64,000 nucleotides of DNA from a virus. How positions within the stretch are numbered: the stretch's first letter is position 1; the number at the start of each line of letters is the position of its first letter. A program made the position numbers and the translations under genes. Location: IMG/VR virus record IMGVR_UViG_3300045988_079613. One strand, given 5' to 3'. This document shows positions 3,528-58,963 of this stretch, piece after piece. Below the pieces are notes generated by a model that was not told where the DNA came from, ran no database searches, and was given only the letters and a program-made list of their open reading frames with translations.

Positions 3528-3529
3528 AA

Positions 3530-7456: not shown

Positions 7457-7522
7457 TAACCATCTCTCTTGTAAAACAACCGGTAAATATTGTCTGTGCA
7501 TCATAACAAACTATCCTGCCCA

Positions 7523-10500: not shown

Positions 10501-11278
10501 TATATATTAATTGACTTACTATCTCATCTACTATATCATTATAGAAACCAAAGAAGTTCTGATCTAGATCATTCAACTTAGTATCATCTATGTCCAGTCC
10601 TTTTCTACGGACATTAACGAGATATTCGAAGGTAGGTCGCAATTCAAATCTTAAATTAGCTAAAAATTCATTAATGTTATCTAAATCTGATTTAAGACCT
10701 TCACTAATATTTGCAATTAGCCATTCTGATTCTTTTTTTATCTTAGTTCTAAGTTCTGCGTCAGGATTAGTATTTACTTTTAATCTTGACTATAAACCTT
10801 TCAGTATCTTTACATTTATGTCTCTTAAAATACTATCTAGTTCTTCCTTTTCTTTAGAATTATAATTATCTTTTGTCTATTCTAATCCTATTTCTAAGTC
10901 ATTGTAAGCCTAATCAACGCGTTCTCTTAAGTCTTTATCTGTGTCAAAAAAAGACTTAGCTTCTTCACTTAAAGAATCTTGTGATTGATACTCTAACACC
11001 TACTAAGCAGTTGGTTCTATAGTTAAATCTTTATAAGTATTCTTAAAACCAATTAAAAAAACTTTAGATTTTTCCCTGATAGCCATTTTAGAATCATTGT
11101 TAAAATGACTTAAAAGATCCTAATATAACTTAGAATCTTTACCTTCACTATCAAACTCTAAGCCATAACCATTATTTTCAGATAAGACATAATAGGCAGC
11201 ATCATAGCTACCTAATATGTCAGTATACTCTTTTAACTATGCCTTTATTTCAGGCAATTCTGTTCTTAAACACGTCAT
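7523..11278 (-). CDS. large virion-associated protein (about 1,251 aa with TAG read as sense)
   Basis: Nine track ORF fragments (7631..10642) share one phase. Every gap was hand-translated: only TAG interrupts. ATG 11278 overlaps the upstream TGA (ATGA). Confidence 0.6.
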
Positions 11279-23200: not shown

Positions 23201-24738
23201 GATAAAAGAGCAGCAGTTGTCTTGTTTTTGGTAGCTAAATCTACAGCCTTGTTCATTATAGCTTTGAAACCTATAGATTTATTCAACAGCTTACCACCAT
23301 AACTTAAACCTAAGTTTTCAGCATAATCACCTAGAGCTAAAGCGTTATTAGTTTCTTCTATCTGTGTTAAACCTTTGCGAGCATCCTTGGCAAAAGTATT
23401 GTAGTTATTATCTTTAGTAGGTATATTATATGCCAAACCAAACTACAATGTTTCCATTTCATCCATTTTATCAGCATCGTAACCCATGGCTTTCAAACCA
23501 GCAGCATAGTCATTCAATACTGTAGATAAATCAAATTTACCATCTGCAGCAGCATTAGCTAATTTTTCAACATAATTAGACATTACTTCTCCTGCAGTTT
23601 CTTTATGTCTAAAATATCGTGTAAATAAAGAGTTGACAACAGCTTCCCCAGCAGCCCAAGCCAAAGGACCACCACCTAATTTGGTACCATATTTCACACC
23701 AAGTGCGGTAAGCATTTGCCATCCCATTCCCTATAATTCTGATGCACTACTACCTATATGCAACATACCATACTTCCAAGTAGTTGGATCTAAAGCAGAT
23801 ATCTAAACTTCTCCACGTTTCTTATCAAGAATAGGATCAATTACTTCAGGATTGTAAAATATTGGCATCGGAACAATTCCAAATAGAGGATCATGTAACC
23901 AATGCGCTGTCTTTAAACTCTATTGTTTCTATTTTAATTCATCATCTTTACTATCATATTCTAACTTAGCATCAGATAATTGCTTTTGTAAATTAGCAGC
24001 TTTTATATCTAACTAGCTAACTGTAGTTGGAAATGTATTAGTAAAATCGGGGTTATTCTATTTCCAAGATAAATCAGCATAGTAAGGAGATAATCTTCCT
24101 TCCGCTAGTTGATTCCTTACTGTAGAAGCTTCTATTGTTCTACTTGGTAACAAAGGGTTTACAGACTCTGTTACAGCTCCATAAAATACATTACTTAGAT
24201 AAGGATTGGTCTTAGCTTTCTATTTTATATCTTCTTGTAATTTCAACAACTCTTCAAGTTTCTGTTGTGAGGCTTGAATGAGATCTGTATTCTATGGGTT
24301 AGCTTTTAATTGATTTTGGAGTTGGATATATTCTTTCTAACCCTATATATAATTCTGCGCTTCTTCAATCTCTGGTAACCATTTACCTTCAGTATCCATT
24401 AGTTCTTTCTGTCTAGAAGTAATGTTCAAAGATAAAGCGTCTCTAGTATTTATATTAACTGCCTATTCAGCAAATGTAGTAGTTTTTCCAGATTCTGTAG
24501 TAGGCTCAAATAGTTTCTTACCACCAATAACTACAGAAGAAGCTATAGGATTTAGCAAAAATGCAGATACTTTGTTTATAATACCTAGACTAGTTTCTTG
24601 TTTATCTTCAGAAATGTTAGATTCCTGTTCCTATATAGGAGTGGCATATTCATCATCTATACGTCCGTAATAACCTGTACCGAACTAACTATCATTAGTT
24701 CTATTTATTACTGATAAAAAATCGTCAGAAAATTTCAT
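11275..24738 (-). CDS. giant multidomain virion protein containing a crAss-type virion RNA polymerase domain (4,487 codons)
   Basis: The listed ORF fragments between 11677 and 23727 share one phase. All gaps were hand-translated: about 78 in-frame TAGs and no TAA/TGA from ATG 24738 to TGA 11275-11277. GSDFDIDKLY (DFDID at 14050-14064) matches the DxDxD metal-binding signature of crAss-like virion RNAPs (phi14:2 gp66 type). HEAFH at 18616-18630. Acidic low-complexity linker at about 20900-21700. Confidence 0.75.
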
Positions 24739-28679: not shown

Positions 28680-31600
28680 TTATACTAATGAGTATCTATA
28701 TGTTGTATTAATATTTGGAAGATTGAAATTATGTTGATTATCACAATTAATAGTATAATCACATATCAAATATTTGCCTCTTAACCTACCAGGCAATGAT
28801 AATTCATCTTCATGAGTGCCTTCTCGACCTATAGCAAACCTATAAGTATCTTCTCTATAATCTATAGCATATCCTCCAGTTAGATAGTTTTCCTATATAG
28901 TACCAACCTAATTCTTAGTAGTAAACTTTGCATCTATTAACATGCTATTTATATCTCTGAACTAGCCACTGAAAAAAACATTATCAAATGTTTTAGTTAC
29001 TAATGGATCTTTATTAACCACATACTGTAACTTAGACTACATAGTATTTAACGGAAAATCTGCATTTTCCATTATCTTATTATTGTATATATACAATAAC
29101 TTATCAGAAAATCTGAGATGAGCTTTAGGATTAAACGTATAAAATGAAGTAAACCTCTAAGTATATTCATTAAATACTAATACTGCATTATCGAAGCACA
29201 TCTGTACTTCATTAAATTTGTTATCATATATGCTGGTACGTACTTGAATATCTGGATTATTATTCAAGTAAGTCTATACATTTTTTTCTTTAGATAACTT
29301 ATGTATTCTATCAGAAAAAGAACATATCTCATTCTTGTCCGTATCGTACCAATATAGAGAAGCATCTGATGCTACTATACTCTAATCATTAGATATAGAA
29401 GATCCATTATTAGTAGATACATAATCGTACCTAGTAAGGATTCCTCCAGTACCTAAAGTAAGAGTACTAACATTATTGTCTGTAATCAAAGATCTATCAT
29501 TTACAGATGCTATTCCTAATGCAGAATCTTGCCAGAAGAATAACTTATCTCCGAAAGCTTTCATATTAGTAACCGGTCCGTATTGACTATCTACTTCCAT
29601 ATAATTGGCAGGTTTAAACTAAGCCCAACTATCTGTAATCTCATTAGCAGTTTTAGTCTCAGAATAAATTATTTTGTTCGGCAATCTTAAGTTAGCCATA
29701 GAAGTAGTAGAATCTGCCACATACATCTGTGTACTAGGCTATAACGAGTAGACATCATTATATGCATAATATGGTTTAGTCTAATTAGAAAAACCTAAAC
29801 TATGTATATAATTAGTTAAATACGGATTGGGACAATTTCCTCTTTGTCTACTCATACTTTCACCATAAGCAAGGTTTAGATTAATGGTAGTTTCTAACGG
29901 AATGTAATCACTTAAACTTACTTTAGTTTGTCTACTATCATACTTTCCTCCTCCTTGTCCATCTGCAATAGGTGATCCAGTTCTATGGTCTAATACTCCA
30001 AGATAAGTATCTCCTCCAAATACATAGTTAACATTACTATCTGCTTCAGATATTAACTTATATGATGACGTGGATATATACGTAGAATTGCTTCTAGCAT
30101 TATAATTATTACCTCCATAAGGAACAACTCTCCTTTTTATATTTACTACAGGAGTTGAGAAAGGAGTATGATTATAGAAATTTATCAAATTCTTAACCCC
30201 TTCCCCCACAGCTATCTTATCGTCTACAGCAATAGAATGTTGTCTAGGAAAATAACCATTTAGTTCTACTACAGCACAACTTCCGAAGTAACACATTTTT
30301 GCACTAAGCCAGTCAAACTATTCCTAGTTATTCCACATAACTCCAAAATTTAAATAGGAACGTGATCCTATGCCTCTATAGTAAGCTTGAATATTACCTA
30401 ATTCTCCATTAGGTATAATAGGAGTAGTTATTGCTCTATTTATGTCAAATTGTATTCTATTTCCACCCTATAAATTCTGATAGTGAGTGATATACCTTTT
30501 CCCTATCATATTAACTACCATCTCGTCATCATCAGAACTATCCATATTAACCGCATTATAGAAGAATCCATCTTGTTTGAATATTGATCCTAAGAAACTT
30601 GGTTGAACGTAGGCAGTCTATGTGTTCATAGCATATGTCTGATACGGAGTCTGAAAATACTTAACAAATCCCTCTAACTTTATATTTTGGTTGTTTAATA
30701 CAGGTATAATTCTAGTAGTGTTAGGCATTCTAGTGTCACACCAATGACACAAGTCTAGATAAGTATTGTCACCTAATTCAGATATAACTTCATCGCCTGT
30801 AAAATCTATTTCTGGAGTTATTAAACTGAATATATTTTTAACTATACGATCCTAATTTAAATAAAGTTCTCCGTCTCTATAAGTAGTAGGTGCGTTATAG
30901 AAACTAACACCTCCACATATAGACATGTTAGTATCTGTAACTCCAAGAGGTATTCTAGGTCTTGTATCCATTTCACTTTTTAGCCATGTACCTGTAGTAG
31001 CATTAGGCCAAGGAAATGCAGTAGTATCTGACAGTATACCCTACATTAATACAGTTCTATCTTCTGCTGTTCTTTTGCATCTTACTATTTCGTATGCCAC
31101 AGCTCCGTCCGGAAAATTCTTTATATTAAACTTAACCCCTATAGCTTTACCTATAAATTCCTATGTAATAGAATTAGTAAGATCTCCATTTACAAACGAC
31201 ATGTAAAAATACCAAGGAGATACTTCAAATGAATGCGGGAATTTGATATCTGCTATCCAGTAAACAGGACTAGCAACATTCTTATTATTAAAAAATATTA
31301 TACCAAATCTGTATATTTCGTCTCTCTAATACCCTTTATATTTTGAATCTATATAAGGGTCGCAATAATTAGGTATTCTTTGTTTTACTTCAGGGTATTT
31401 TACTACAATGTTACTACCATCACTAATCTGATGTATTATTTTTCCTTCGTCCTATTTCCTAGGTACACTCATGAAATTATAATCTAGAGTGGTATCTAAC
31501 ATTATGTCTGTAGTTATAAACTCATAATCTATATTTAAACCAGTACCACCTAATACCGGTAACTGTTCTGAAGAAGACTTAAATTTATATTTTGAAACAG

Positions 31601-32852
31601 TATTATCATTAAGCTTATAATCTGATAAGTTTAATGGACACATACAATCATGTTTTTTATCTATAGATGATAATACCTACTTTAAAGTACTATCTGTAGG
31701 AGTAACAGATATACTAGATCCTGAATCAGCTGCCTATAATATTAACTTGTTACTTCCAGTAAATCTATACGACCTAGCATCATACTCTTCTCCATTTATC
31801 ATTGGTTTCCAAGTAGTTTCTCTGACATCTGCAGCAAACAATATATTATCTTTCTTTTCTAGAGTAGCTACAGTGAAATCACTACCGATGTTAGCGTTAA
31901 ATTCTTCTATAGTTACAGTATTCAACGTTTTATTACCTAAATCGGTATATGTTAAAGAATTACCGGAAGGTAAATCTATTTCGTCAATAACATCTATATT
32001 AGCTATTTCGGTATTATCCACGTATTGTATTCTTACTATTCTACACTTGTCAAATAATCCAGAAACTACATTAGATAAATCAATTACAATATTAGCACTT
32101 TTGCCAGTATTGACATCTTTATTTACTCCTTGATATTCTGCAGAATCGGTAGTAGTATTACTAGATGTTAAGTGCATAGTGTTGCTAGCAGGAGCATATC
32201 CAGTACTAGAACCTCTTTCATTATATAACTGATAAGTGTACTATACTTGTCCAGATAATAATGACCCATTAGTTCCAAGACTAACTATTTTAGGAGCAAC
32301 TAGCAATGTGCTTGGTATTATGTCCAACGAATCCGGATTCTTTATATTACCTTCTTCATCTAATGCTGGATTAGCACCTTCAGAGTTTTGTACGTATCTA
32401 TCGCTCATTATATTTAGTGATCTAATACTACTCTCTCCATCTGTAAAATACATTTTAATAATAGAATCAGATTCATAGTTAGCAACTATTTTAACTCTGC
32501 TAAATCTGTTATAATTAAGTCTTCCTTTTAATACTAGTGTGTGCTGTATTAATCCTTCTTCGTAACCCTCTACTCTATATATTCTAGTTATACCATATGG
32601 ATCTGCAGTGAGTATGATACCATATTGATTAATTATGGCTGTAGCTAATACTACCTCGTCACTATCCATAAAATCACCACCTTGTATTAATCTAGTGCTT
32701 TGTATATTCTAAAGTACTCCACTAGTACCATCTTTATTAGTAAGGATACGTACATTTTCTGCATACCTGTATTGTGATTCTGGTATAGCAGTAATATCAA
32801 TATCCAAATTCATCCCTTCGATGAAACTATTCGTCTAGAAAGTATTACTCAT
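28680..32852 (-). CDS. large tail/virion structural protein (about 1,390 aa)
   Basis: Five same-phase fragments. The gaps 31452->30296 and 29382->28680 were hand-translated (TAG only). Begins MSNTF-TAG-TNSFIEGMNLDID. Function inferred from size and position. Confidence 0.55.
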
Positions 32853-33567
32853 AACATTTCCTTTCTGTATATTTCCATTTATACCCACCAGCTGTTTTAT
32901 GAATTTTTTTCAAACTAAGAACAGATTGTATAGCAGTTTTAGCGATTCCTGTACATTTACTAGCACAACGTATAGATTTATAAGTATTCACTAAAACGTC
33001 GTCTCTAGTAAACTGAGACACAGGTTTACAATTTGCATATACTTCTTTTCTAGTCCAACTTCCGATATTCTAAGTTTTATTGTAACTCCACTAAAAACCT
33101 TTGTATGATTTTTTATTCTTTCTGTGCTCACAACAACCTTTAATGTTGTCAACATAACCGTTTATTGATTTTGCTGCAATTAATAAATTATCATAACTAC
33201 ATATGTAATTTCCATTCATATCATAACAGTGTACCTATTTTCCACTAACTTTATTTATATTATAATTTCCACACTGTTCAATATACTTATTCTCTAAAAA
33301 TTTAATAGTGCTACGATTGTCTTCACATTCTTCTAGTATTATAAATGAGAATTTATCTATACCGAATATATCTACAGCGTTCTATAAATTTATATTGTGA
33401 CATTTTCCACAAGAAAGATTCTACAAATGAAAACCCAATCTATTTTTTATATTTGTTGAAGATCCAACGTACATGTTATTATCTATATCATTTCGTATAG
33501 CGTATATTCCACAACAGAAGTTACGAATTGAATTTATATTTTTTCTGGTAAATTTATAACATTTCAT
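32845..33567 (-). CDS. GIY-YIG homing endonuclease with IENR/NUMOD-like DNA-binding repeats (240 aa, 5 in-frame TAGs)
   Basis: CGIYAIRN...NMYVGSSTNIKNRL is a GIY-(10-11 aa)-YxG motif. Two C-terminal modules (VHCYDMNGNYI..., VSQFTRDDVLV...YKWKY). Fully hand-translated. TAA 32845-32847 overlaps the next gene by 8 nt. Confidence 0.7.
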
Positions 33568-36796: not shown

Positions 36797-37645
36797 TTAG
36801 CAACCACATCCATCGTTGTATCCGAATGCTCCATACGCGCCATAGCAGCAGTTAGGATTCGGAACTACGTATGCAGGAGTAGGACACGGAGTCTTTAATT
36901 GAGAAACAATATTAGCTGTCTGAGCTTGAGTAAGGGCTGCTGCTTCTAGAGCTGCTTTTTCACTACGCAATGTATCAATCTTGCTTTGCATTTCACGCAT
37001 TTCAAGCTGACAGAATTTATCGTTGATTATTTGAGTTTGAGCGTCTATTTTAGCACCCAAAATATTAAATTGAGTATTAGCGTTGCTAGTCAGAGTATTC
37101 GTCTGGTTTACTATAGCTAACTGACTTTCATAACCCTGAGTAGTTATAGCATTACGAATATCGCAGCAGCAAGAAGCCAACTGAGATGCAAGGCTTGCAT
37201 TACCGCTCTGGATAGCGTTGATTACTTGTGCACCTGTCAATTTAGTATCACAAGCGATCTGGCTAACACTAGTATTAATAGTGTTCAGTGCATTCTGTAC
37301 TGCATTAATATCACAATTCAAAGTATTAGACAAAGTAGCGATAGCTTCTTTGTTACCATTGATTGCTTGCATTAGCAGATTAGTGTTGGCATCAGTATTT
37401 AATTGAGAAGCAAGCTGTGAAGCTTCACCGCTTCTGTTACCGAAGCCATTACCACCCCAACCGCCCCAAACAAAGAACAGTAAGATGATCCAGATCCACC
37501 AACAACCGTTGCCACCGAAACCTCCATTGTTATTCATCATAGCCATGAGAGCTGCAGGGTCCATACTTTTATTACCATTCTGCATTAATGCAGCTAGACC
37601 AGCGTCAAAACCACGGTCTTGAACAATAATTTTATCTTCTAACAT
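36797..37645 (-). CDS. membrane-anchored coiled-coil protein with Cys-rich C-terminus (282 aa, TAG-free)
   Basis: Hydrophobic segment CWWIWIILLFFVWGGWGG, a long N/Q/A/T heptad-like region, and a C-terminal NPNCCYGAYGAFGYNDGCGC. Confidence 0.65.
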   Translation of the reverse strand: MLEDKIIVQDRGFDAGLAALMQNGNKSMDPAALMAMMNNNGGFGGNGCWWIWIILLFFVWGGWGGNGFGNRSGEASQLASQLNTDANTNLLMQAINGNKEAIATLSNTLNCDINAVQNALNTINTSVSQIACDTKLTGAQVINAIQSGNASLASQLASCCCDIRNAITTQGYESQLAIVNQTNTLTSNANTQFNILGAKIDAQTQIINDKFCQLEMREMQSKIDTLRSEKAALEAAALTQAQTANIVSQLKTPCPTPAYVVPNPNCCYGAYGAFGYNDGCGC

Positions 37646-38954: not shown

Positions 38955-39456
38955 TATTGGTATTTTTTAAATCATTAATGTCAATATCTACTCCGAGATA
39001 TTTCTCACCTTTAGATTTGATAACCTTTCCTAAAACTTTTTCTATTACTTTACAAATCTTGCAATCTGGATGTAAATCTTTCATAGATTCAAGCCAAGAT
39101 ATAAACTCTGTTCCACATATCATACCAGATATAAACTCTACAGCATGCAAATCTATAGAAGTAACTATACTAGTATCTATTACATGTGCTCCTGCTATCA
39201 ACAGTACAGCCTCAAATAACTTATTTATAGTCTTCCATAATTTGTAGTACTCTATCTACTTATGACCATACTTACGAGAAACTTTATAACCAAGAATTAC
39301 ATCTACAATGATAAATAAACATACGCAAACAACAGTTACTGAAATTGGTGTAAAGTAGCTAGTGATTCCCGCTAGTATTCCAGCAGATGTTTTTTGTGCA
39401 CTGCTGAACATACTTTTTAATAGTGTCATAACCGGATCTCCTATATTGTGAATCAT
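38923..39456 (-). CDS. holin-like small membrane protein (177 aa, 1 TAG)
   Basis: Track fragments 39256..39456 and 38923..39201 are in the same phase and joined by one TAG. Hydrophobic segments GILAGITSYFTPISVTVVCVCLFIIVDVILG and LLIAGAHVI. The call rests on these segments and on adjacency to a TM/coiled-coil gene. Confidence 0.4.
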
Positions 39457-39467
39457 AGCAAGTGTTT

Positions 39468-39506
39468 TGAAAAGTAAAACCCTAGCTGATAATTAGTCTG
39501 CCAGGG
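39468..39506 (-). terminator. terminator-like hairpin after the RT gene
   Basis: Minus strand CCCTGG-(15 nt)-CTAGGG followed by TTTTACTTTT. The loop region carries a direct repeat TTATCAGC x2. Confidence 0.45.
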
Positions 39507-39569
39507 CTGATAATATTGTTTTGATATACTTATAAAACGTATATATTTATATATAGTTTCTTAGTCTAA

Positions 39570-40577
39570 TTATTCTTTAATATATTCTAATAGCTCTTTA
39601 TATTTAGACATTTTATTTAATAAGTTACGTCCATTACAGTATTTAATCCAACCTATATAGCTACATATTTTTTGCTTATACGTATCTTTATCTAGGTTCT
39701 ATTTTTTATTTAACTTGTTTATCTTTTTGCAGAATCTCTTTTTTATACGCTTTCTTAATAACGTATGAGTATGAAATACTCTATATCCTACAAAATCTAT
39801 ACCTCTCGAATCTACCTTAAATATCTACCAATTATCTTTAAAGTTTAACTTTAATTTATTATTAAGATAATCCTGTATGTTATAGAATAAATCTCGTAAC
39901 TACTACTTATCTCCACCTAATATTACAATATCATCTGCATATCTAAAGTAGTATCTAACTTTCTTTTGTTCTTTAATCCAGTGATCTAAATAAGTAAGAT
40001 ATAAATTAGCAAAGAACTAGGATAAGTAATTACCAATAGGTACTCCCTAAGCTGATTCTATTATTTCATCTAACAGACTTAATAGTCTTTTGTCTTTTAT
40101 TTTTTTCCTTATTATTGTTTTTAATATATCATGATCTATAGAAGAATAGAACTTTCTGATATCTAACTTTAAACAGTATTGCGTATTTATTTCATCCTTT
40201 AAAGCAAATTTAACATCTTTCAAAGCTTTGTGTATACCGCGCTTTCTAATGCAACTATAAGTTCCTTTTATAAATGCAGATACCCATATAGGCTCCATTA
40301 TATTCATAATTGCGTGATGTACAATTCTATCAGGATAGTATGGTAGCTTAAATATTTCTCTTTCTTTTGGTTCATATATTTTGAAAACATAATATTCGGA
40401 AGTTTCGTATTCCCCATTTATTAGTTTTCTTTGTAGATCTAGAAGTAACTTGTCTTTGTTCTTATCAAATAACATTACTTCAGGTCTATGTGATTTCTAT
40501 CTTCTAGCTTTTTTATCAGCCTCATATAAGTTATCTAAACTTACTATTTTATCAAATAAATTATTGTATCTTTTCAT
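39570..40577 (-). CDS. DGR-type reverse transcriptase (335 aa, 6 in-frame TAGs)
   Basis: MKRYNNLFDKIVSLDNLYEA opening. PKEREIFKLPYYPDRIVHHAIMNIMEPIW (motifs 1-2). LKLDIRKFYSSIDHD (motif 3). GVPIGNYLS-TAG-FFANLYL (motif 4, (I/L)GxxxSQ). RYADDIVILG (YxDD). Fully hand-translated from ATG 40577 to TAA 39570-39572. Confidence 0.85.
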
Positions 40578-40704
40578 CTGAAATCCTATTTCGAGTTTTC
40601 ACAAAGTTACTAACACGAAGATTTTAATTAGTCATTTTTTACCTAGTGGTAAAGTCTCCTCTAACAGTTTTTTCATCTTATTATTCAGATGTGTTTTGTT
40701 AAGG

Positions 40705-40802
40705 TTTCAGTGTACTGACATTGGCATTAGCATTGCTAAGTGTATTGTTAGAATTCAAATTGAGCAAACTGGAATTCGTACTATTACTAGTGTTACTGCT
40801 TA
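40705..40802 (-). repeat. DGR template repeat (TR)
   Basis: 98-nt match to 40849-40946 at an offset of 144. In the VR frame it reads AGC AGT AAC ACT AGT AAT AGT ACG AAT ..., which is rich in AAY/AGY codons. Confidence 0.8.
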
Positions 40803-40820
40803 ATGACAGAGGACAACTTT

Positions 40821-40848
40821 ATCTATATTTAAATTACGGTATATAGAT
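40821..40848. repeat. 8-bp inverted repeat abutting the 3' end of VR and enclosing the target stop codon
   Basis: ATCTATAT (40821-40828) and ATATAGAT (40841-40848) with a 12-nt loop containing TAA 40834-40836. Confidence 0.5.
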
Positions 40849-42075
40849 CAACCGAGTACCGACATAGGCACTAGCATTGCCAAGCGTATCGCGAGAACCC
40901 AAACCGAGCCAACCGGAATACGCACTATAACTAGCGCCACCGCCTACAATTAAGGTTCTATTTGAAGTGCTATTATTGGTATAATTATAATCACACCAGT
41001 ATGTAGTAGCACTTCCTCCATATGCCTCATCAATTGGTGGAAACAAATCAAATGATTCATTATAAATGAGTCTCTTCTTATAACCATCAGTAGTTACAGT
41101 ACTACATTGTAAGTTATAATCTGAAATGTTAGTCGAACCAAATTTACTTACATCGGTAGTAACATAAACGTCATTTTTCGTAGAAGTTGCATTATAATGT
41201 ATAAGTGTGTCTATACAATTTTTCCATACGTGACCGAATGGATTCTCTATTCCTCTGTAAGTAGGAACACTGTAAGTCTTCTGAGTAACAACTCCCTCTG
41301 CATCACTGCTATCAACAGTAACTGAAGTAATTCCTGTAGAATTACCGTGTTCATCAGTACTACCACAGGGTATGAAATTATATTTAGCTACTCCGTTCAC
41401 TTGTATACTACCAGTAGTAACACCATCTCCTAGACCTCCCTGATGATAACCTTCTGCAGTTAATTCAGCATTAAATGCTTTTTGAGAATTAGTACAAGCA
41501 TATTCTACTAAATATAGTATAGTAAGTACCTTGTGTGCATTATAAGTATATATATTCCAATTAGTACTACCGGCCTTATTAGCCCTAGCTCTTTGTTGCA
41601 TTGTGGTTCTTGCAATATTAACTGAAGGAGTAATATTATCACCTTTAATAGACTTATATACATCTTCAACATTAGATGCTTCGTATGCTGAAATATAGAA
41701 CTTCTCTACATGCTCTACTCCAGGTATCATGGGATCTGCAGGATACAAATTTAGATATACGGTATTGTCATCCTTCATACACTTATACCAAAACTCAGGT
41801 ATTTCTACCATAGTATTTAAAGTCATATCTCTATCAGAACCATCTTCATATTTAGTTCTATCGTCTGCTTTAAGATATTTAACCACACCATCAGCAGTAA
41901 GTGTACATGATTTCATTTTAGATTGAATCGGTAATTCTTTATGCCAAGGCATATAACCAATTCTAGTCAAAGTAGTACTTTGAGGTTCTATAGGGAAACT
42001 AACCCCATAATAATTAGTAAATACGTTAGCGTTTCCTAAACGGACAGCTACAATATTTTTATCTCCAAGTTCCAT
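40834..42075 (-). CDS. DGR target protein, tail-associated receptor-binding candidate (413 aa, TAG-free)
   Basis: Uninterrupted ORF. The C-terminal ...IVGGGASYSAYSGWLGLGSRDTLGNASAYVGTRLIYIP is encoded by VR and resembles C-type-lectin-fold DGR variable regions. ATG lies 2 nt after the TAA of a small fibre-like gene. Confidence 0.75.
   Translation of the reverse strand: MELGDKNIVAVRLGNANVFTNYYGVSFPIEPQSTTLTRIGYMPWHKELPIQSKMKSCTLTADGVVKYLKADDRTKYEDGSDRDMTLNTMVEIPEFWYKCMKDDNTVYLNLYPADPMIPGVEHVEKFYISAYEASNVEDVYKSIKGDNITPSVNIARTTMQQRARANKAGSTNWNIYTYNAHKVLTILYLVEYACTNSQKAFNAELTAEGYHQGGLGDGVTTGSIQVNGVAKYNFIPCGSTDEHGNSTGITSVTVDSSDAEGVVTQKTYSVPTYRGIENPFGHVWKNCIDTLIHYNATSTKNDVYVTTDVSKFGSTNISDYNLQCSTVTTDGYKKRLIYNESFDLFPPIDEAYGGSATTYWCDYNYTNNSTSNRTLIVGGGASYSAYSGWLGLGSRDTLGNASAYVGTRLIYIP
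40849..40946 (-). repeat. DGR variable repeat (VR)
   Basis: 27 differences from TR. 25 are at positions where the TR coding strand is A (25 of 37 TR adenines changed, against 2 of 61 other positions). Confidence 0.8.
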
Positions 42076-42077
42076 AA

Positions 42078-42584
42078 TTATTCGTAAATTAAGTATAATG
42101 TTTTAGAATTTTTATTAGGTAATGCGTTATATTCTGCTTGAGTCATAGTAACTATGTTGTTAACAACCTCTGATGATATACAATTAGTTAAATCTACAGT
42201 TTCTGATAATTTATCCCATTCTGCTGGATCAGCATTAATGCATACATAATTAGCTCCTGTATCATCCACGTTGTACACATCTCCGACTACAGATACCTCA
42301 GGTAAAGAATCAAAGTCTGCTACAGTACCTTTTACTCTATATACAGATGCTACCTTAGCGTCTACCTATTCCTTATTATAGGTATCAGACTTATCTGCTT
42401 TGTTATCAATCTTCTCTTCTAGTTGTTCTATTACTTCTGTATCTCCACTGATAGGAGCCCAACCAGAATTCTTATAAACTTTAATTACAGCACCTGTTGG
42501 ATCTTCTTTTAGATCAATCCAGTAATTTACTTCCTTAGGATCTGGAGCTGTAACACTGGCTTTAAAATTTATGTTTTCTTTCAT
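42078..42584 (-). CDS. small tail-fibre-like protein (168 aa, 1 TAG)
   Basis: Fragments 42366..42584 and 42078..42278 are in the same phase. Confidence 0.5.
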
Positions 42585-43149: not shown

Positions 43150-46100
43150 TTATCTTTTCCATTTACCTATTGCTATATAACTTACTGGTTGTGTAGTATA
43201 TGCTGCCGAAGTACTCATATCAGCTTCTGTCGCTCTATATGTGAAACCAGCCGCGTAAACCTATGTAACTACTGCACTATACATATTACGATAAGTATTA
43301 TTATTGGTTTTGAATGAGACCATTACAGTCCATGGAACAGCGTAAAAACCAATAGGAAACGTTACAGTTCTTAACTCTGTAGAAGCACTAGGTGTATGTG
43401 TACCCCAGCATATCTATAGTCCGTTTATAAATCTCTAATATCCATCAGTATTAAATCTACTGCTTTCGTTCCAATTTTTCATACTAACAACAGCCTGATC
43501 GTTAGTAGTAAATGTGCCACTATCGTAGTCTTCAACATTAAATACTTCAGATATACAATTTCCTTGATCGTCTATAATGGAAGCATATACTGCAACCCCA
43601 TTAGACAAACCTCCGCTGTCTAAATCAGAGTTTGCTATAACCATTGGAAATGTACCGTAGTCACCTTGAGGGTTACCATAATATAAGAATTGATACTCGT
43701 TTAAATCTACATCATTATTTATTTTTTTTAGTATAGCAACATCTGCACTATTGAGAGTGACATAAGTACTTCTATCTGTCTTAAATAAATCATTAGTAGT
43801 AAATATTGCTACTTTACTATTAGCAGGTTCACCTTGAGGTCCTTGTGGTCCAACATCACCTTTATCTCCTTTATCACCTTTGTCCCCCTTCGGCCCAGTA
43901 GGACCAGTGTCTCCTTTGTTTCCTTTCGGACCCTATTTTCCTTGCAATCCTGTATGACCTTGAGGTATACCAAATCTGAATGTTCTGGCACTAGCTGTAC
44001 CACCCATTGTTACTGTTGCTTCTGAAGTATAAGGTAGAGTAACAGCAGATACCTCTGTAATAGTTGCTGCAGTACCGGTATCACCTTTAGGTCCCTGAGC
44101 CCCTGTATCACCCTTGGGTCCAGCTTCACCTCTAGAAGGTTTACCGGTATTAGTATCTCCTAAATACCAGTTACCATTGGAACCAATAGTTGGTGTTATA
44201 CCGTTCTCACCTGGATCCCCTTTATCTCCCTTAGGCCCCGATGCAGATGCTGGTATGTTAATTGTTTTAGCTGCAGATCCATCCCAAGTTCCTGTTACAG
44301 CTCCAGTAAATGTCAATGCATATGGAGTTGGCAGTTTATCCGCTGTAGTAGCTATTTTCTTCCAAGTGTTCCATCCGGCATCATTTATCGCGTCTCTGAA
44401 AAATAGATGATCTCTGTCCCCATGTGATAAAGCTAATTGCAACGTAAAATTGCCTGTATTGCCAGGTAATATAGAAGACGAACTAGCTATTTGTACTATT
44501 TCTCCATATAGTCCACTAATTGGAATAGTACCTTCATTATCTGGAGCATATGCTCCAAAGAACGAACCAGTCACTTGATCTATATTATTAACATTTAGCA
44601 ATCTAGTAAAATCAGTAACTGATTTAGTAGTTCCGTTACCAAGCAACATATGAGAACCATCTGAACCAGATACTACATAACCGGTTGCCCATAATCTAGA
44701 TGAAGAGTCTCTCTATGCTACAGAATTAGCAACAGAAGATGAGGAGAATGTAGGTTTATTAGCTATATTACCCCAAGTTAAATCATTGTAATAGGCTAAA
44801 GCTTTCCATTCTGCATCTGCCAATGTTCTAGTAGTCCCATTGAAATCACTTCTAACATACATTCTTACTACCCTTATAGTACTCTATCTTAGATCTGGAA
44901 TATAAAACTAAGTGATACTAGTACCGCTAGTAAAACTTAAGAACTACCCATAATCATATGATCCGGTTCCTAAATCATCTGCATTAGTATATCCTATAGC
45001 TTCTATGTAACACGTATCAGCGTAATTTTTACTTACTGGACCAACGCTCTTAGCATACTTATTAGAATCCTTACCATCAAGCAATTGAGCATTAAGATTA
45101 GTAACCAAATTAGTATTAGTCATAGTACCACCAGATAAACTAAGTTTACCAGATAATCCACTATTCAATTCTGTCTTAGTAGCTAACGCACTAGTATCGG
45201 GTATAGTAGGTTTATTAGTTAGATCATTATAGTTACCAGAGAATTCAATAATCTCAGACCATGCAGCATTTCTTCTACCATATTTTTTATTATCCTTTGG
45301 TGCTTCACCTACTTCTCCAGCTCCTGCTGTAATTTCAATATTACCTGCTCCAACTAAAGATTCCCCATTAACCGTCTTTATGTTAGTACCACTTACCAGG
45401 GTGTTTTGTTTCTACGAATCTAGTGCGTATATTTGACCTACTAGGTTATTCTCTACCTCTGTAGCTCTAGCAGTTTCTGCTTCTATTGATCCTATCAACT
45501 GCTAATTAGATTCTTCAAACTCTGATCTAACAGAATTAATAGCTGCAGCTACACCTGTTAATTTTACACCATTAGGGCCTACTGTCAAATATGAATCTGA
45601 TGTAGAGTCTATAACTACATTAAATTTATTAGACGCAGCAAGTTGTAACCCATTTCCAGCAGTATATACATCTACTAAATCACCTATGTTAACCCTTACT
45701 ATAGAATCTCCATCTTCTGCTACAAAAGTGAATACTAAACTAGTAGTATCTGCATCATATACAACTCCTTTAAGAAATCTATCTTTAGGTATACTAATTT
45801 CTCCAGCATTAATAGAATCTACCATTAATGTGTAATGCAAACTATTCTACTAATCCTAGATCAATTCTACTGATGCTACTTTACTATTTTGGAGATTAGT
45901 TATTAAAGTGTCTTGTGCGTCATTACGATTCTTCTCAGTAGTAATTTTATTAGTATTAGCATTTTCTGCATTAGTAGCTCTGGTAATTTCATCAGTAATT
46001 CTTTGTCCTAAAGCATTATCTGCGGCTTTGTATGCAGTCTCAACTTCATCTATTCTATCAGAAAGACCACTATCACTACCAATTGATTCTTTCAATTCTG

Positions 46101-46548
46101 TAATAGATTCTTTAACATAGCTATCTAAGGAATATACAGAACCAATTATTTGATTCTCTGCAGTTTGTGCTCTACTTATTTCTGTATTAATAGCATCAGT
46201 ATTCTTTGACTCAGCAGCTTTAGCTCTATCTGATTCATCTTTAATAGCTTTAGTATTAGTTTCTTCAGCCTATTTAGCTCTAGCTATTTCATTATTTATT
46301 TTTTCAAGATTATCTGCTTCTGCCTGTTGAGCTCTTGCTGTTTCTGCAGACACACTATTCTATATGTCTCTTTCTGCTTGAGTAGCTCTAGCAATCTCTT
46401 CATCGAGTTCTGTTTTTAAGCTATTCGTACTCTGGTTAATATCAGATTGGTACTTCTATAAATCTTTATCCCAAGTTTGATCGGTATTGACTATCTTAGG
46501 ATCTGTAGTATCATTAACCAGGGTACCATATATTTTAATGTTTGCCAT
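43150..46548 (-). CDS. tail fibre with coiled-coil N-terminal repeats and collagen-like G-X-Y tracts (about 1,132 aa)
   Basis: Same-phase fragments 43435..46095. GPKGDKGDPGENG, GEAGPKGDTGAQGPKGDTG, and after a TAG GPKGNKGDTGPTGPKGDKGDKGDKGDVGPQGPQG. ATG 46548. TAA 43150-43152 hand-checked. Confidence 0.7.
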
Positions 46549-48091: not shown

Positions 48092-49906
48092 TTATACTTG
48101 CTCCCAAGTAACACTCCCATCCTCGTTGAAGATAATTCTCTTACCTGCTATCTCAACTACTGTATGAGAAGATGAACCTATTATGATCTGATTACTATCG
48201 GATGCTTTAACATTGTACCCTATAACAATAGAATTTTCTATCACTGCCGGAGTGCTCTTAGAATGCAGTTTAGCTAAATGTCCTATACAGATATTATTCT
48301 TACCGTCGACATCATAATTGTTCATTGCATCCATTCCTATAGCAACATTTCCTTCACCTTCTATATACAATGCAGCATTAGCCCCGACAGCAACACATTT
48401 AGTGTTATTACGCACACCAGCAGATGCCCCGACAGCAACACATTTTGATTTAGCAAAATGTGCAGAACCACCACTTAATGTTCTATGCCCTATAGCTACG
48501 TTATCGACGAAATCATTGCTATTTGTCTGCCCTAACGCATTTGTCCCAATTGCGACATTGCGTTCTCCTTGCCCTCTAACCTCTCCCAATGCAGCCTTAC
48601 CTATTGCTACATTATCCTCTCCTTTTGGTATATACCACGCCGCATCAGAACCTATTGCTATATTTCTATCTCCCTCAATTAGGCGCGTTAGGGGGAATGT
48701 TCCTATACCGATATTCCTTGCTCCATATTTTAAGGAGCTTAACGATCTCTGACCTATTGCAATGTTGCGGGATCCATTCTGGTTCTTTGCAAGGGCATCG
48801 GTTGCACCTATTGCAATGTTCCACCAGCCTGTAATGTTATCTGTCATTGTGCCTCCTTCAACATTTTCGTAGTGCTTATTACTATCAGAATCAAGTTCTA
48901 CCTCTATTGATGCCTCATCCTCAGAAACAATTTTACGAAGTTCCACTCCATACACACTTCCATCATATGCTGATGATGCGGTAATTTTAAGACTACCACC
49001 GTCCGATATCATACCAACATAGAATTTACCTAACGTTCCATTATAGATATCACATAATCCCCCCTCACCGATACTAACACAAACATCCTTTTCGTATGTG
49101 CCGACTTTAGAATAATTGAATATTGCTACATATTTTTCACCCTCAATAGTAGCATGATCAAAAATAAGAGTATCTGTATTGCCTATAGCATGCGTATAAA
49201 CCCCTTCTGTGTATTGCCAGTTATCTCCATTGCCAACAATTGAACTGATAAGGTTATCGCCAAGATATAATTTTTTACTTACTTTTCTACGAATGCAAGT
49301 TTTAATATCTTCGGATTGAATATCTTCGTCAAGAGTCACAATCCCATCTGGTCCAACTCTGAGAAATTTCCCTGCGTTGTTTATTCCTTGCTGTTTATCA
49401 ACCTTGCCATTTATTAATCCAGATTCTGATTTGTATTCAATATTGGTAGGTTCATAGCTTACTCCAGATGAATTAGCGCAATAGACATATAGGTAATTAC
49501 AATCAGAAGGTAATACTATCTCAAATGGAAAGTAGTGAGTCTCAATGCTTGTATATCCGTCACAAGCATTAACAATTGAACCGGATACGAAATCGCAATC
49601 TTTTACAGGCAACACGGAGGCTCCATGAGCCGTATCTATCGGTGTAATCATCAGATTTCTTCCCGCCACAACAGGGATAACCTTGTGCTTTGTCAATCCA
49701 TAATTTCCATTAGTTCTGAAAACTAAATCACTACTTGTAATTAATCCACTCCGATAATCATACAAATTCAAGTCGATTGCTTGGGCTTCAATACCAGTAA
49801 TTTTATCTACCTTTGAAAATATTTCCTCAAAGTTCCCATCAATCGCAGCAGCTAAAGTACCCCATGATTTTTCAGAGTCTTTTGCTATATCAAATATCTT
49901 TTCCAT
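48092..49906 (-). CDS. tailspike/fibre with degenerate NIAIG-type repeats (604 aa, TAG-free)
   Basis: Uninterrupted ORF. C-terminal array of (R/D)N(I/V)AIG repeats reminiscent of YadA-head/trimeric-adhesin repeats. Visibly higher GC than its neighbours. Confidence 0.7.
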   Translation of the reverse strand: MEKIFDIAKDSEKSWGTLAAAIDGNFEEIFSKVDKITGIEAQAIDLNLYDYRSGLITSSDLVFRTNGNYGLTKHKVIPVVAGRNLMITPIDTAHGASVLPVKDCDFVSGSIVNACDGYTSIETHYFPFEIVLPSDCNYLYVYCANSSGVSYEPTNIEYKSESGLINGKVDKQQGINNAGKFLRVGPDGIVTLDEDIQSEDIKTCIRRKVSKKLYLGDNLISSIVGNGDNWQYTEGVYTHAIGNTDTLIFDHATIEGEKYVAIFNYSKVGTYEKDVCVSIGEGGLCDIYNGTLGKFYVGMISDGGSLKITASSAYDGSVYGVELRKIVSEDEASIEVELDSDSNKHYENVEGGTMTDNITGWWNIAIGATDALAKNQNGSRNIAIGQRSLSSLKYGARNIGIGTFPLTRLIEGDRNIAIGSDAAWYIPKGEDNVAIGKAALGEVRGQGERNVAIGTNALGQTNSNDFVDNVAIGHRTLSGGSAHFAKSKCVAVGASAGVRNNTKCVAVGANAALYIEGEGNVAIGMDAMNNYDVDGKNNICIGHLAKLHSKSTPAVIENSIVIGYNVKASDSNQIIIGSSSHTVVEIAGKRIIFNEDGSVTWEQV

Positions 49907-57991: not shown

Positions 57992-58963
57992 TTAGGCAGC
58001 AATGAAGTTTTCGATACCTTTTGCTACAATAGAAGAAGCAAAACCAGTTGAATGCTTAACATACAGTTCAGTAGTAAGCGGAGTGGTTTTGATGTATTGA
58101 TTATCATTACTCAGATACTTATTATCGTTTTCTACAGTAATATAATCGTAAGTAGCATCTTGCTCTACCATTCTATCTTGTACTACTTCAGGATAAGCTC
58201 CAGTAAATACATGACCTTGGTAGCCCATATAACGTACTTCAGCGTCACGTACTTGTTTCCAGTAACCTTTACCAGGATTACCAGGAGTTTTAACAATAGT
58301 AGCACCAGGGATAGCGTCAGGCTGATTACTCAAAATAGCACCAGGAATAGTAACATACAGACTAGCTTCCATATCTACTACAGAATATTCATTCAATGAA
58401 TATACACCGTTATTGTCATCTTTTTCCATTGCAGTTAAAGTGATAACTGCAGCAGATGCAGACGCATTAACTCTACGGTTAGCATGTTTGTTAATCTTTT
58501 TAACGATAGCAGCAGCTAAGTCAGCAGCAGTAGTGTTAGCAGCAAATACTTCGTATGTGTGCGTAAACTGACCCGGAGCTTCATACATGTCTTTATATAC
58601 TATTCTTAGTACATATCTATGACCTGCAATGATAGTAGCATTAGTAAGAGTAATAACGATCTTGTTCTGAGCTGGAGCTACATATTCTCCAATAACTGCA
58701 CTTGGATTGGAATTCTTCTGAATTTCATTACCAAATTTAATATTAGCCTTATCAGCTACCTTACCATCAGGCATAGTAACTTTTACTTTATTCTGAGCTA
58801 CACCTATATACAAAGAAGTAGCCTTAGCTGCATCAGTAGCAGTTTTGATAATAGCTCTATTCTGGTCAAACAGAGCAACATCACCCGCAGAAAGTGCATC
58901 AGCAGTAGTATAAGCTGACGGAAGATTTTTACCGATCAAAACGGTATTTACGTGTTGAATCAT
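57992..58963 (-). CDS. abundant virion structural protein candidate (323 aa, TAG-free)
   Basis: Uninterrupted, Ala/Thr/Val-rich, higher GC. It has its own upstream intergenic region and a strong terminator. Confidence 0.65.
   Translation of the reverse strand: MIQHVNTVLIGKNLPSAYTTADALSAGDVALFDQNRAIIKTATDAAKATSLYIGVAQNKVKVTMPDGKVADKANIKFGNEIQKNSNPSAVIGEYVAPAQNKIVITLTNATIIAGHRYVLRIVYKDMYEAPGQFTHTYEVFAANTTAADLAAAIVKKINKHANRRVNASASAAVITLTAMEKDDNNGVYSLNEYSVVDMEASLYVTIPGAILSNQPDAIPGATIVKTPGNPGKGYWKQVRDAEVRYMGYQGHVFTGAYPEVVQDRMVEQDATYDYITVENDNKYLSNDNQYIKTTPLTTELYVKHSTGFASSIVAKGIENFIAA

Follow-up and report, generated by a model that had tools for sequence, protein, structure and literature searches.

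A gene for a reverse transcriptase (RT), an intergenic repeat (TR) and a tail protein gene carrying a second copy of that repeat (VR) lie close together in the 64,000-nt stretch of viral DNA analysed here, henceforth referred to as the window. RT, TR, VR and target gene are all on the minus strand and are ordered target gene, VR, TR, structured RNA, RT, at the end of a block of tail genes (Table 1). The earlier note had described the locus as a complete diversity-generating retroelement (DGR). Its TR and VR coordinates and mismatch counts were reproduced to the base, as was its 127-nt gap between TR and RT.

Table 1 Features of the DGR locus, in window coordinates.
Feature	Position	Strand	Description or basis
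DGR RT	39570-40577	-	335 aa; 7 in-frame TAG (Gln); TAA terminator
TR-RT spacer	40578..40704	-	127 nt; counterpart of BPP-1 'Sp' region
Predicted structured RNA in TR-RT spacer	40591..40652	-	related to Rfam RT-17/RT-18
P2 stem, AGUA/GAA internal loop and 2-bp apical stem	40591-40618	-	part of spacer RNA
P1 hairpin, UUACC/GGUAA	40639-40652	-	part of spacer RNA
TR	40705-40802	-	98 nt, 37 adenines; repeat comparison, AAY/AGY codons in VR frame
TR 3' end (last ~15 nt), IMH*-like, GTCAGTACACTGAAA	40705-40719	-	alignment across strains
VR-TR spacer	40803..40848	-	46 nt
Inverted repeat directly after VR, ATCTATAT / ATATAGAT	40821..40848	-	8 bp, 12-nt loop; read from sequence and folded
Target gene, 413-aa tail protein with C-terminal VR	40834..42075	-	ORF and PHROG match
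VR	40849-40946	-	98 nt; repeat comparison with TR
VR 3' end, IMH-like, GTCGGTACTCGGTTG	40849..40863	-	essentially invariant in Buchavirus-type loci
VR mutagenised part	40864..40946	-	about 28 codons; TR mismatches nearly all at TR adenines

The window is 94.7% identical at the nucleotide level to the RefSeq crAss-like phage cr56_1 (NC_055890; Buchavirus, Suoliviridae) and encodes a crAss-specific protein (Pfam CrAss_Ring_2, E = 8e-80). Outside its late genes the phage has hardly any TAG codons; within them TAG makes up 30–60% of Gln codons, with 78 in a single 4487-aa ORF. A tRNA scan of the window returned none; a tRNA(CUA) is present in cr56_1 and, judged by its position there, falls outside the window's span. 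The CrAss_Ring_2 match, the identity to cr56_1 and the share of TAG in late genes identify the genome, from its sequence, as that of a TAG-recoded crAss-like phage (Suoliviridae, Buchavirus-like), in agreement with the earlier note.

The RT reading frame is interrupted by exactly seven internal stops, all of them TAG (aa 27, 177, 187, 225, 226, 251 and 293), and under the standard code no ORF in it exceeds 142 aa; a DGR finder run with that code will break the gene into pieces and miss it, which calls for caution in annotation. With TAG read as Gln, the full-length protein contains YADD and IGNYLSQ, a form of the DGR hallmark IGxxxSQ, and the TAG at residue 187 aligns with the Q of IGSLTSQ in bRT. 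The protein matches Pfam RVT_1 (E = 8e-17) and PHROG phrog_1423 (E = 6e-125), and its best PDB match is 8ub7, the Bordetella phage DGR RT (E = 1e-54, residues 2–324). By its SQ motif and YxDD the predicted enzyme belongs to the DGR clade, and the RT with YADD and DGR-type motifs claimed at the outset was thereby recovered.

RefSeq notes on relatives nevertheless call the enzyme an 'Intron reverse transcriptase' or a 'retron-type RNA-directed DNA polymerase', and generic RT models of those families give significant E-values. Such labels would suit a retron, group II intron or defence RT (DRT/Abi) lying beside a chance duplication under diversifying selection, a reading to which we give hardly any credence. 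Those family models score far under their curated cut-offs (group_II_RT_mat, 117.8 against 300 bits; retron_St85, 57 against 235; Drt3a, 74.8 against 200; Drt2, 44.5 against 390), and the DGR RT is the best solved relative by 35 orders of magnitude (group II, 2e-19; retron, 8e-19). The SQ motif is present, and no group II intron, retron or other RNA family reaches its curated Rfam threshold in the window. The RT thus stands apart from retron and group II intron RTs; a grouping with them would have contradicted the earlier note.

TR and VR are mismatched at 27 of 98 positions, the TR-to-VR changes comprising 18 A>G, 6 A>T, 1 A>C and 2 T>G. Changes are found at 25 of the 37 TR adenines and at 2 of the 61 other TR bases (Fisher p = 3.4e-12), so that the adenine-specific asymmetry reported previously (25 of 27 mismatches at TR-A) was upheld. 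Both exceptions can be explained: one lies inside the fixed 3' IMH-like block and is common to all relatives, while the other (VR 40910, TTG>TGG) occurs in this strain only. VR occupies codons about 377–409 of the target and is followed by four codons (IYIP) and TAA. In the VR frame, the 28 codons of the mutagenic part of TR include 10 AAY and 6 AGY and none able to mutate to a stop, which bears out the stop-free AAY/AGY design noticed earlier. Its 31 mutable adenines give access to about 4.6e18 DNA and about 3e17 peptide variants. A search of the window and of the complete cr56_1 genome, its closest relative, yielded no second VR-like copy. TR itself has one point difference in this strain (G at 40765, A in sister strains), and an adenine-depleted TR was seen in 3 of about 78 natural relatives.

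The 3' ends of the two repeats, GTCGGTACTCGGTT(G/A) in VR and GTCAGTACACTGAAA in TR, are both fixed across strains and differ from one another at fixed positions; upstream of its end, VR varies. The IMH-like VR end is also kept in cr109_1, which has no RT. These ends have the properties of a putative IMH/IMH* pair of the kind found in DGRs.

Hypervariability was assessed among eight near-identical strains with near-identical TR. In VR, 27 of 36 TR-A columns were variable as opposed to 4 of 60 other columns (p = 3e-12), whereas variable columns numbered 2 of 98 in TR, 0 of 46 in the VR-TR spacer and 1 of 127 in the TR-RT spacer. Strains L018 and L025 are 99.5% identical in the gene body and 100% in TR and RT, but only 85% in VR; where the stretch from IMH through TR to RT is 100% identical between strains, 15% of VR positions differ. 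The test on related genomes that the earlier note had proposed therefore found VR variation confined to TR-A sites. Pooling 73 related loci gave 1761 A-to-N mismatches and 18 others, a distribution that ordinary selection on a chance duplication beside a retron or intron RT cannot yield.

Homologous recombination among co-circulating strains or tail-gene cassettes, without reverse transcription, would be another source of VR diversity, given that crAss-like tail genes are known hot spots of recombination and horizontal gene transfer (PMC10136315) and that 11% of columns are variable among strains in the upstream 600 nt of the target. Recombination would, however, take no account of which base stands in a separate template, and the variation in VR is limited to the TR-homologous block, ends exactly at its boundary and falls on TR-A columns, with the interleaved non-A columns invariant. 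We see next to no chance that recombination accounts for it.

An Avd gene was detected neither in the cassette, nor among the 29 window ORFs (Avd/23S_rRNA_IVP Pfam families), nor in the cr56_1 annotation, and the spacers of 46 and 127 nt are too short to leave room for one. Avd is essential in the BPP-1 prototype. Among DGRs at large, about a quarter lack Avd, including all 'lineage 3' elements, and the layout found here matches the lineage 3 architecture (PMC7290462). The description of the DGR as complete consequently stands for an Avd-less TG-VR-TR-RT architecture and fails as regards an Avd gene.

The absence of Avd would also fit a fossil DGR, a cassette that once worked and is now inactive, with old differences between TR and VR. 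Incomplete cassettes are indeed common, occurring in 66 of 91 genus I crAss-like genomes (PMC7290462); the relative cr109_1 has lost TR and RT while keeping a VR-like end, and three related loci have adenine-depleted TRs. A fossil nonetheless seems improbable for the window, where the RT is encoded in full, with every motif in place, and TR retains its 37 adenines, and where strains with 99.5–100% identical flanks have VRs differing by ~15%, all at TR-A sites. Such differences between such flanks call for very recent activity in the lineage, and the DGR is apparently active now or was so very recently; the strain data bear on the lineage and do not prove present-day activity of this particular genome copy.

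The target matches PHROG phrog_5302 'tail protein' (E = 5e-77) and sits inside a tail-fibre/spike cluster, the setting the earlier note had given it. It shares 45% identity with the C-terminal half of the cr53_1 target, a protein of 853 aa, and 27% (E = 2e-20) with the tail-collar fibre protein of crAssphage LMMB, and its cr56_1 homologue carries the label 'tail protein; similar to sulfatase, major tropism determinant'. By fold, its BFVD matches (TM 0.5–0.66) were tail proteins and 'tail collar fiber' proteins of crAss-like phages. Searched against Pfam, NCBIfam and PDB sequences, the target itself gave no match; in 38 and 61 members of its family scanned with Pfam, no domain covered the VR module, and PDB-sequence HMM searches with three profiles returned nothing relevant. 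The module is nonetheless very widespread, with more than 4,000 clusters at 50% identity, and has neither a Pfam model nor a solved structure. AlphaFold models were of low confidence both for the full protein (38-sequence alignment, pLDDT 55) and for the C-terminal 263 aa (139 sequences, pLDDT 47). The top Foldseek match in the PDB was TaqVP, a DGR variable protein, although weakly (E = 0.06, TM 0.34), and hhalign placed VR on the VR of BPP-1 Mtd at an insignificant level (E = 0.02, probability 2%). The target-family consensus ends in ...GSRLC, an ending described for CLec3 VRs in the LMMB paper (PMC7290462). The target may have a C-type-lectin fold, and its diversified end would plausibly serve in receptor binding or host range.

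None of the nine Gln codons of the target is TAG, as compared with 7 of 12 in the RT. That the lack of TAG marks a target under special regulation, or one acquired recently, was considered and rejected, as sister-clade targets carry one or two TAG and several other late genes are free of TAG.

The predicted RNA in the TR-RT spacer was analysed with RNAalifold and pair counts over 18 sequences, in which 98.3% of cells were paired, compared with about 40% in slid controls, and compensatory changes were present in six pairs. This covariation backs the prediction of a conserved, structured RNA. The window copy scores below the Rfam gathering thresholds (RT-18, 32 bits against 41.3, E = 7e-4; RT-17, 27.6 bits), and the homologous position in two relatives scores 49.8 (L096) and 40.8 bits (L028) against the RT-17 threshold of 40.4. 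The AGUA/GAA loop of P2 resembles the loop-E/sarcin-ricin motif.

The loop of the inverted repeat that follows VR contains the stop codon of the target. Relatives keep the repeat, with a varying loop length, except for the Blohavirus-type clade, which lacks it; in the cr52-type clade it shows one compensatory change, ACCTATAT/ATATAGGT. Its hairpin is AT-rich, with a dG of about -3 kcal/mol that is not significant (z = -0.45). It was rejected as a well-supported element since its energy is no better than shuffled, the compensatory change is single and the repeat is partly coding, although the repeat could conceivably form a target-site hairpin or cruciform.

Taken together, the locus is very probably an Avd-less DGR, with IMH at the end of VR and IMH* at the end of TR, that diversifies a tail protein. 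TR and its downstream 127-nt spacer would be transcribed, on a transcript that may be shared with the target gene and RT since no terminator was found between them; a scan of 39300–42300 for sigma-70 promoters and intrinsic terminators returned nothing above shuffled expectation. The RT would be made only where UAG is read as Gln, and hence would rely on the phage tRNA(CUA), because seven TAG codons interrupt its gene, one of them in the catalytically important SQ motif. The enzyme would then reverse-transcribe TR, misincorporating opposite adenines, and the resulting cDNA would replace VR, with the fixed IMH-like 3' end directing homing and the adjacent inverted repeat possibly helping. Up to about 16–20 codons could be rewritten in the last 33 residues of the 413-aa tail protein, which would change its ligand-binding surface, with altered receptor or host specificity as the likely result.

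A more elaborate proposal makes three further suggestions and is, as a whole, doubtful. P1 and the stem with the AGUA/GAA loop would scaffold or prime adenine-mutagenic cDNA synthesis. Mutagenic retrohoming would be gated to the late, suppressor-tRNA phase, as the RT is translatable only through seven UAG codons, so that only genomes near packaging would be diversified. The adenine-depleted TRs of relatives, unless they are assembly chimeras, would reflect occasional self-homing that burns out the template.

The DGR is well supported as real but unremarkable: elements like it were known before in this phage group, and it is not novel. DGRs have been described in crAss-like phages, including those with amber-recoded RT genes (PMC7290462, PMC11054128, PMC12386605), and have been published for alpha, delta, epsilon and zeta crAss-like phages, so the present finding adds little new. 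In phages of the human gut they are one of the commonest accessory systems: of 79,250 high-quality genomes, 25,620 encode an RT, and 85.7% of these carry a TR-VR pair (PMC8241571). The value of the locus lies in a very clean natural data set for an Avd-less DGR apparently active in an abundant, uncultured, TAG-recoded lineage.

The nearest counterparts are the RefSeq Buchavirus/Blohavirus genomes cr56_1, cr60_1, cr52_1 and cr53_1, which share the order holin, RT, tail protein, tail genes and all have TR/VR pairs with A-specific mismatches. Their records annotate 'Reverse transcriptase' and 'tail protein; similar to sulfatase, major tropism determinant', while TR, VR, IMH and the RNA element are without annotation. 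The window strain differs from these relatives in its own VR sequence, one TR point difference and a TAG-free target. DGR cassettes were previously found in Suoliviridae according to PMC11054128; the main text of the source cited there, Yutin et al. 2021 (PMC7886860), mentions no DGR or RT.

The DGR of crAssphage LMMB and other candidate genus I phages (Carjivirus, Intestiviridae; Morozova et al. 2020, PMC7290462) has the same one-strand order of target, VR(IMH), TR(IMH*) and RT without avd, and likewise lies at the end of the structural block with a VR of about 33–35 C-terminal codons. The LMMB element is assigned by its authors to lineage 3 of Wu et al., and its VR to the CLec3 type (PMC7290462). 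The two RTs are 51% identical, and the targets are homologous (27%, E = 2e-20). In contrast to the window RT (335 aa, seven TAG), the LMMB RT has 431 aa, a C-terminal extension and no TAG; its IMH and IMH* are reportedly identical, whereas those of the window differ at fixed positions, and LMMB, a member of Intestiviridae rather than Suoliviridae, gives no RT-17/18 Rfam match at E<=0.01. In the zeta crAss-like phages, Crassvirales DGRs also target tail-fibre proteins, amber codons, decoded by suppressor tRNAs, occur in 7 of 18 RT genes, the RTs keep the GxxxSQ motif, most elements are without Avd, and the authors report similarity of the RTs to those of Suoliviridae. Some zeta phages have Avd and several TR-VR pairs, whereas one pair is present here, and the phage group and genome size differ.

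The BPP-1 DGR (mtd-avd-TR-brt) has an RT homologous over its full length (E = 1e-54) and shares adenine-specific mutagenesis, AAY codons, fixed IMH/IMH* ends, a VR at the C-terminus of the target (in BPP-1, a receptor-binding protein of the tail) and an inverted repeat that closely follows VR (PMC3240598); its TR-RT spacer is 144 nt, compared with 127 nt here. Unlike BPP-1, the window has no Avd, its VR and TR are 46 nt apart and not split by avd, its target shows no significant sequence similarity to Mtd, and translation of its RT needs UAG suppression. The spacer RNA resembles Rfam RT-17 (RF03020) and RT-18 (RF03021) rather than RT-10 (Weinberg et al. 2017, PMC5737381), and shares with RT-17 and RT-18 both the site just upstream of the RT gene and the stem/internal-loop layout. 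In that work only RT-10 was linked to a DGR and the other motifs were a matter of speculation (PMC5737381); the present locus lends support to tying the RT-17/18 RNAs to DGR function.

The earlier note had proposed a complete diversity-generating retroelement (DGR) in this phage; the observation was confirmed, and its interpretation as a DGR is supported overall. The template repeat (TR) and the variable repeat (VR) align without gaps and differ at 27/98 nt (18 A>G, 6 A>T, 1 A>C and 2 T>G), with changes at 25/37 TR adenines versus 2/61 other bases (Fisher p=3.4e-12). The base just before the homology is already mismatched at a non-A position, which agrees with the start claimed previously. The VR forms codons ~377-409 of the 413-codon target gene and is followed by Ile-Tyr-Ile-Pro and the stop; gaps of 46 nt and 127 nt separate VR from TR and TR from the reverse transcriptase (RT) gene. 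Every number in the note (repeat coordinates, 27 differences, 25/37 versus 2/61, 335-codon RT, 127-nt gap) was reproduced. Its description of a stop-avoiding AAY/AGY design also held, as the mutagenic part of the TR comprises 28 codons in the VR frame, including 10 AAY and 6 AGY, and none of the 28 can become a stop by mutation. The 31 mutable adenines allow ~4.6e18 DNA and ~3e17 peptide variants. One of the two non-A mismatches falls in the fixed ~15-nt 3' end, and the other, which turns TTG (Leu) into TGG (Trp) at VR position 40910, occurs in the window strain alone. TR position 40765 is G in the window strain versus A in seven sister strains, so that one mutable adenine is lost. No second VR-like copy was found elsewhere in the 64-kb window.

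Coordinates of the DGR cassette, its spacer RNA elements and the TAG-free late genes
Feature	Position	Strand	Description
TR	40705-40802	-	gapless alignment with VR, 98 nt
VR	40849-40946	-	gapless alignment with TR, 98 nt
RT	39570-40577	-	ATG 40577 to TAA 39570, 335 codons, 7 internal stops
8-bp inverted repeat	40841-40848 / 40821-40828	-	directly after VR; 12-nt loop holds the stop codon
P1 hairpin	40639-40652	-	UUACC-N4-GGUAA, fold from 18-spacer alignment
P2 stem	40591-40618	-	encloses AGUA/GAA internal loop and 2-bp apical stem
TAG-free late gene	36797-37645	-	0/21 Gln codons
TAG-free late gene, DGR target	40834-42075	-	0/9 Gln codons
TAG-free late gene, tail spike	48092-49906	-	0/11 Gln codons
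TAG-free late gene	57992-58963	-	0/12 Gln codons
TAG-free late gene	61184-62197	-	0/15 Gln codons

All internal stops of the RT gene are TAG (7/7), and the frame is open only if these are read through. With TAG read as Gln, the product matches Pfam RVT_1 (E=8e-17) and PHROG 1423 (E=6e-125). When all PDB sequences were searched, the best match was the Bordetella phage DGR RT 8ub7 (328 aa; E=1.1e-54, residues 2-324), followed by group II intron RTs (2e-19) and retron RTs (8e-19). In the 8ub7 alignment, PIGNYLSQFFANLY of the window RT is placed on PIGSLTSQLFANVY of the Bordetella enzyme, and YADD on YMDD. Rival NCBIfam RT models all scored far under their curated cut-offs: 118 versus 300 bits for group II RT/maturase, 57 versus 235 for retron St85, 75 versus 200 for Drt3a and 44 versus 390 for Drt2. 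The enzyme is therefore of the DGR type, as originally suggested, and not a retron or group II RT. In the DGR hallmark SQ, the glutamine comes from TAG at aa 187, which supports both the DGR assignment and recoding; the same glutamine is TAG in 45/82 related RT genes. Three to nine TAG codons occur in 79 of these 82 genes, only the more distant LMMB (the crAssphage with a published DGR), locus L096 and one other carrying 0-1. The enzyme therefore cannot be made without suppression.

Related loci were collected from IMG/VR by an exact-pattern scan with the TR 3' end (10 contigs) and a protein-guided scan with the RT (80 loci). Population variation was assessed in the window and seven IMG/VR strains with an almost identical TR. 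These eight strains vary at 2/98 columns of the TR, at 1/127 of the TR-RT spacer and at none of the 46 columns of the VR-TR spacer. In the VR, 27/36 A-templated versus 4/60 other columns were variable (Fisher p=3e-12), so the VR polymorphism that the earlier note proposed looking for in related genomes is present. Two strains, L018 and L025, have the same sequence throughout the 1265-nt IMH-TR-spacer-RT stretch (100% identity) and nearly the same target gene up to the VR (99.5% identity, 1226 nt), and their VRs differ at 13/89 positions. Across the 73 loci that have a full-length TR/VR pair, 1761 mismatches in total lie at A (1028 to G, 418 to T and 315 to C) versus 18 elsewhere. This restriction to A sites rules out ordinary mutation, selection or recombination as the source of the VR pattern. 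Information thus flows from TR to VR in an adenine-specific manner, and the cassette has been diversifying its VR within the time over which near-clonal strains diverged. Confidence is high that the element is a DGR and was active recently.

Both repeats end in ~15 nt that are fixed, unlike the rest. Virtually all Buchavirus-type loci, the RefSeq relative cr109_1 among them, have a VR ending in GTCGGTACTCGGTT(G/A), and the TR ends in GTCAGTACACTGAAA; judged by sequence, these fixed, non-identical ends appear to be the expected IMH/IMH* pair. The inverted repeat after the VR is conserved, with a loop that differs in length between relatives, and one compensatory change in it was seen in the cr52-type clade. 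It is AT-rich, partly coding and missing from the Blohavirus-type clade, and it does not stand out from shuffled sequences in folding energy. In BPP-1, a hairpin/cruciform at the same position enhances homing (PMC3240598), and by analogy the repeat is a candidate homing hairpin.

The TR-RT spacer encodes a conserved structured RNA. In the window, Rfam RT-18 matches at 40576-40651 (32 bits, E=7e-4) and RT-17 at 40564-40656 (27.6 bits), below the gathering thresholds of 41.3 and 40.4, respectively; two relatives score 49.8 and 40.8 bits with RT-17 at the same position, above 40.4. In an alignment of 18 distinct spacers, 98.3% of paired cells were complementary versus ~40% with partners slid by 1-3 columns, six pairs showed compensatory changes, and the covariation score was 0.45 versus <=0.03 in the slid controls. 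The AGUA/GAA loop may resemble a loop-E/sarcin-ricin motif. In BPP-1, RT-10 lies between TR and brt according to Weinberg et al., whose suggestion that other RT motifs might work with other DGRs was speculative (PMC5737381); the present locus supports it for RT-17/18.

Both spacers are too short for an Avd gene, and the genes flanking the cassette encode tail proteins and a holin (Pfam Phage_holin_4_1). A scan of 29 window ORFs gave no match to an Avd family, and the annotation of cr56_1, a RefSeq Buchavirus, lists no Avd gene. The LMMB cassette, assigned by its authors to lineage 3 of Wu et al., is likewise arranged TG-VR-TR-RT and Avd-less (PMC7290462). The system may operate independently of Avd.

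The target matches PHROG 5302 'tail protein' (E=5e-77), and its neighbours belong to tail-fibre-assembly, tail-fibre and tail-spike families and Pfam Phage_tail_C, which places it in a tail-fibre gene run as the note had stated. It shares 45% identity with the C-terminal half of the cr53_1 DGR target (853 aa) and 27% with the LMMB tail-collar fibre protein (E=2e-20). An exhaustive profile search with this ~410-aa module gave 4379 homologous clusters (50% identity) at E<=1e-3 and 886 at E<=1e-30; the module is almost always C-terminal, in proteins of 400-1600 aa. The family consensus ends in ...GGxAxxGxxAGLxxxxSxxxxSxxxAxxGSRLC, which the window end ...VGTRLIYIP fits, and a GSRLC-type C-terminal motif was tied to CLec3-class VRs in the LMMB paper (PMC7290462). 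No match to the module was found in Pfam, NCBIfam or PDB sequences, and thus no solved homologue by sequence. Two AlphaFold attempts both gave poor models. In BFVD, the full-length model matched crAss-like tail proteins and, from many gut phages, 'tail collar fiber proteins' (TM 0.5-0.66; best E=1e-23 for this poor model), and its top PDB match was the DGR variable protein TaqVP, a weak match at E=0.06. With hhalign, the VR was placed on that of Mtd, the BPP-1 target, at E=0.02 and 2% probability; the RefSeq curator note on the cr56_1 homologue reads 'similar to sulfatase, major tropism determinant'. These observations together make a predicted C-type-lectin-type display of the VR likely. Gene context and the BPP-1 precedent suggest receptor binding and host-range switching as the phenotype. 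The 1132-aa tail-fibre protein (43150-46548, minus strand) contains collagen-like Gly-X-Y runs, e.g. GPKGDKGDPGENG... and GPKGNKGDTGPTGPKGDKGDKGDKGDVGPQGPQGEP; its gene is longer than the cr56_1 counterpart (3399 nt versus 3174 nt).

The 2.9-kb DGR region is 94.7% identical to cr56_1 (NC_055890; Crassvirales, Suoliviridae, Loutivirinae, Buchavirus faecalis) and 76-77% identical to cr60_1 and cr52_1, and a neighbouring gene matches Pfam CrAss_Ring_2 (E=8e-80). Together with the TAG-encoded SQ glutamine, these matches sustain the identification of a TAG-recoded crAss-like phage. Translation with TAG=Gln gave a dense gene map. TAG is almost absent from the plus-strand early block (1-6800; 0-1 per gene at 32-6273) and makes up 30-60% of Gln codons in most genes of the minus-strand late block, which includes one 4487-codon ORF with 78 in-frame TAG (11275-24738, minus strand). 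The ORF matching the cr56_1 major head protein has TAG in 1/13 Gln codons, and DGR target genes of sister clades carry 1-2 TAG each. Late-gene-limited TAG-to-Gln reassignment is a published trait of delta-group crAss-like phages (PMC7886860). A scan of the 64-kb window found no tRNA; in cr56_1, a tRNA with anticodon CUA, named tRNA-Gln in RefSeq, adjoins the terminase gene, beyond the part of the genome covered by the window. Two further giant ORFs, encoding 1473 aa (6857-11278) and 1390 aa (28680-32852), flank the 4487-aa ORF, whose cr56_1 counterpart bears the sole annotation 'nuclear pore complex protein-like'. By position, 32845-33567 and 61184-62197 (both minus strand) correspond to cr56_1 'homing endonuclease' genes, one with a GIY-YIG note; they lie among structural genes, adjoining the tail tubular and major head protein genes.

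Altered cassettes were observed in several relatives. The IMG/VR loci L037 (2279-2371), L041 (~2279-2375) and L051 (~2275-2375) have an adenine-depleted TR and an intact RT ORF. These TRs are G-rich and unlike each locus's own VR; in L037, 28/35 A (19 to G) versus 14/64 non-A positions were changed (p=3e-8), and its TR finishes with VR-like GTCGG and, after it, TR-like TACACTGAATCC. They could reflect self-homing of mutagenised cDNA into the TR (a 'burnt-out template') or an assembly artefact or chimera. In the Buchavirus cr109_1 (NC_055892; L004:3056-3294), the target, VR-like end, IMH-like block and inverted repeat are kept and the TR and RT are deleted, leaving a holin-target interval of only 237 nt and a frozen VR. 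In the cr60-type locus L029 (2145-2221), the VR lacks ~16 nt that the TR has, close to the VR 3' end, and the target has 408 codons, not 413.

In the proposed mechanism, RNA covering TR and spacer would be transcribed, and the RT would be translated only when the phage tRNA(CUA) decodes UAG, presumably at a late time. The RT would copy the TR with adenine-specific errors, with priming and a part for the spacer RNA both assumed. The IMH, possibly helped by the hairpin, would then direct the cDNA to the VR, and new tail-tip variants would be packaged.

DGRs are pervasive in gut phages (PMC8241571). Those of crAss-like phages were described in 2020 for genus I (PMC7290462), and the LMMB RT is 51% identical to the window RT. 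Later descriptions cover epsilon (PMC11054128) and zeta phages (PMC12386605), the zeta paper also noting amber suppression within RT genes and a resemblance of the RTs to those of Suoliviridae. Cassettes were stated to have been found previously in Suoliviridae (PMC11054128), although they are not mentioned in the main text of the source cited there (PMC7886860). Four RefSeq Buchavirus/Blohavirus genomes carry annotations for the orthologous genes, and IMG/VR holds near-identical contigs (97-98%); the element is therefore known in kind and lineage. It is a textbook case of a known system in an already annotated lineage, to which the base-level anatomy (IMH pair, RT-17-type RNA and population test) is an incremental addition.
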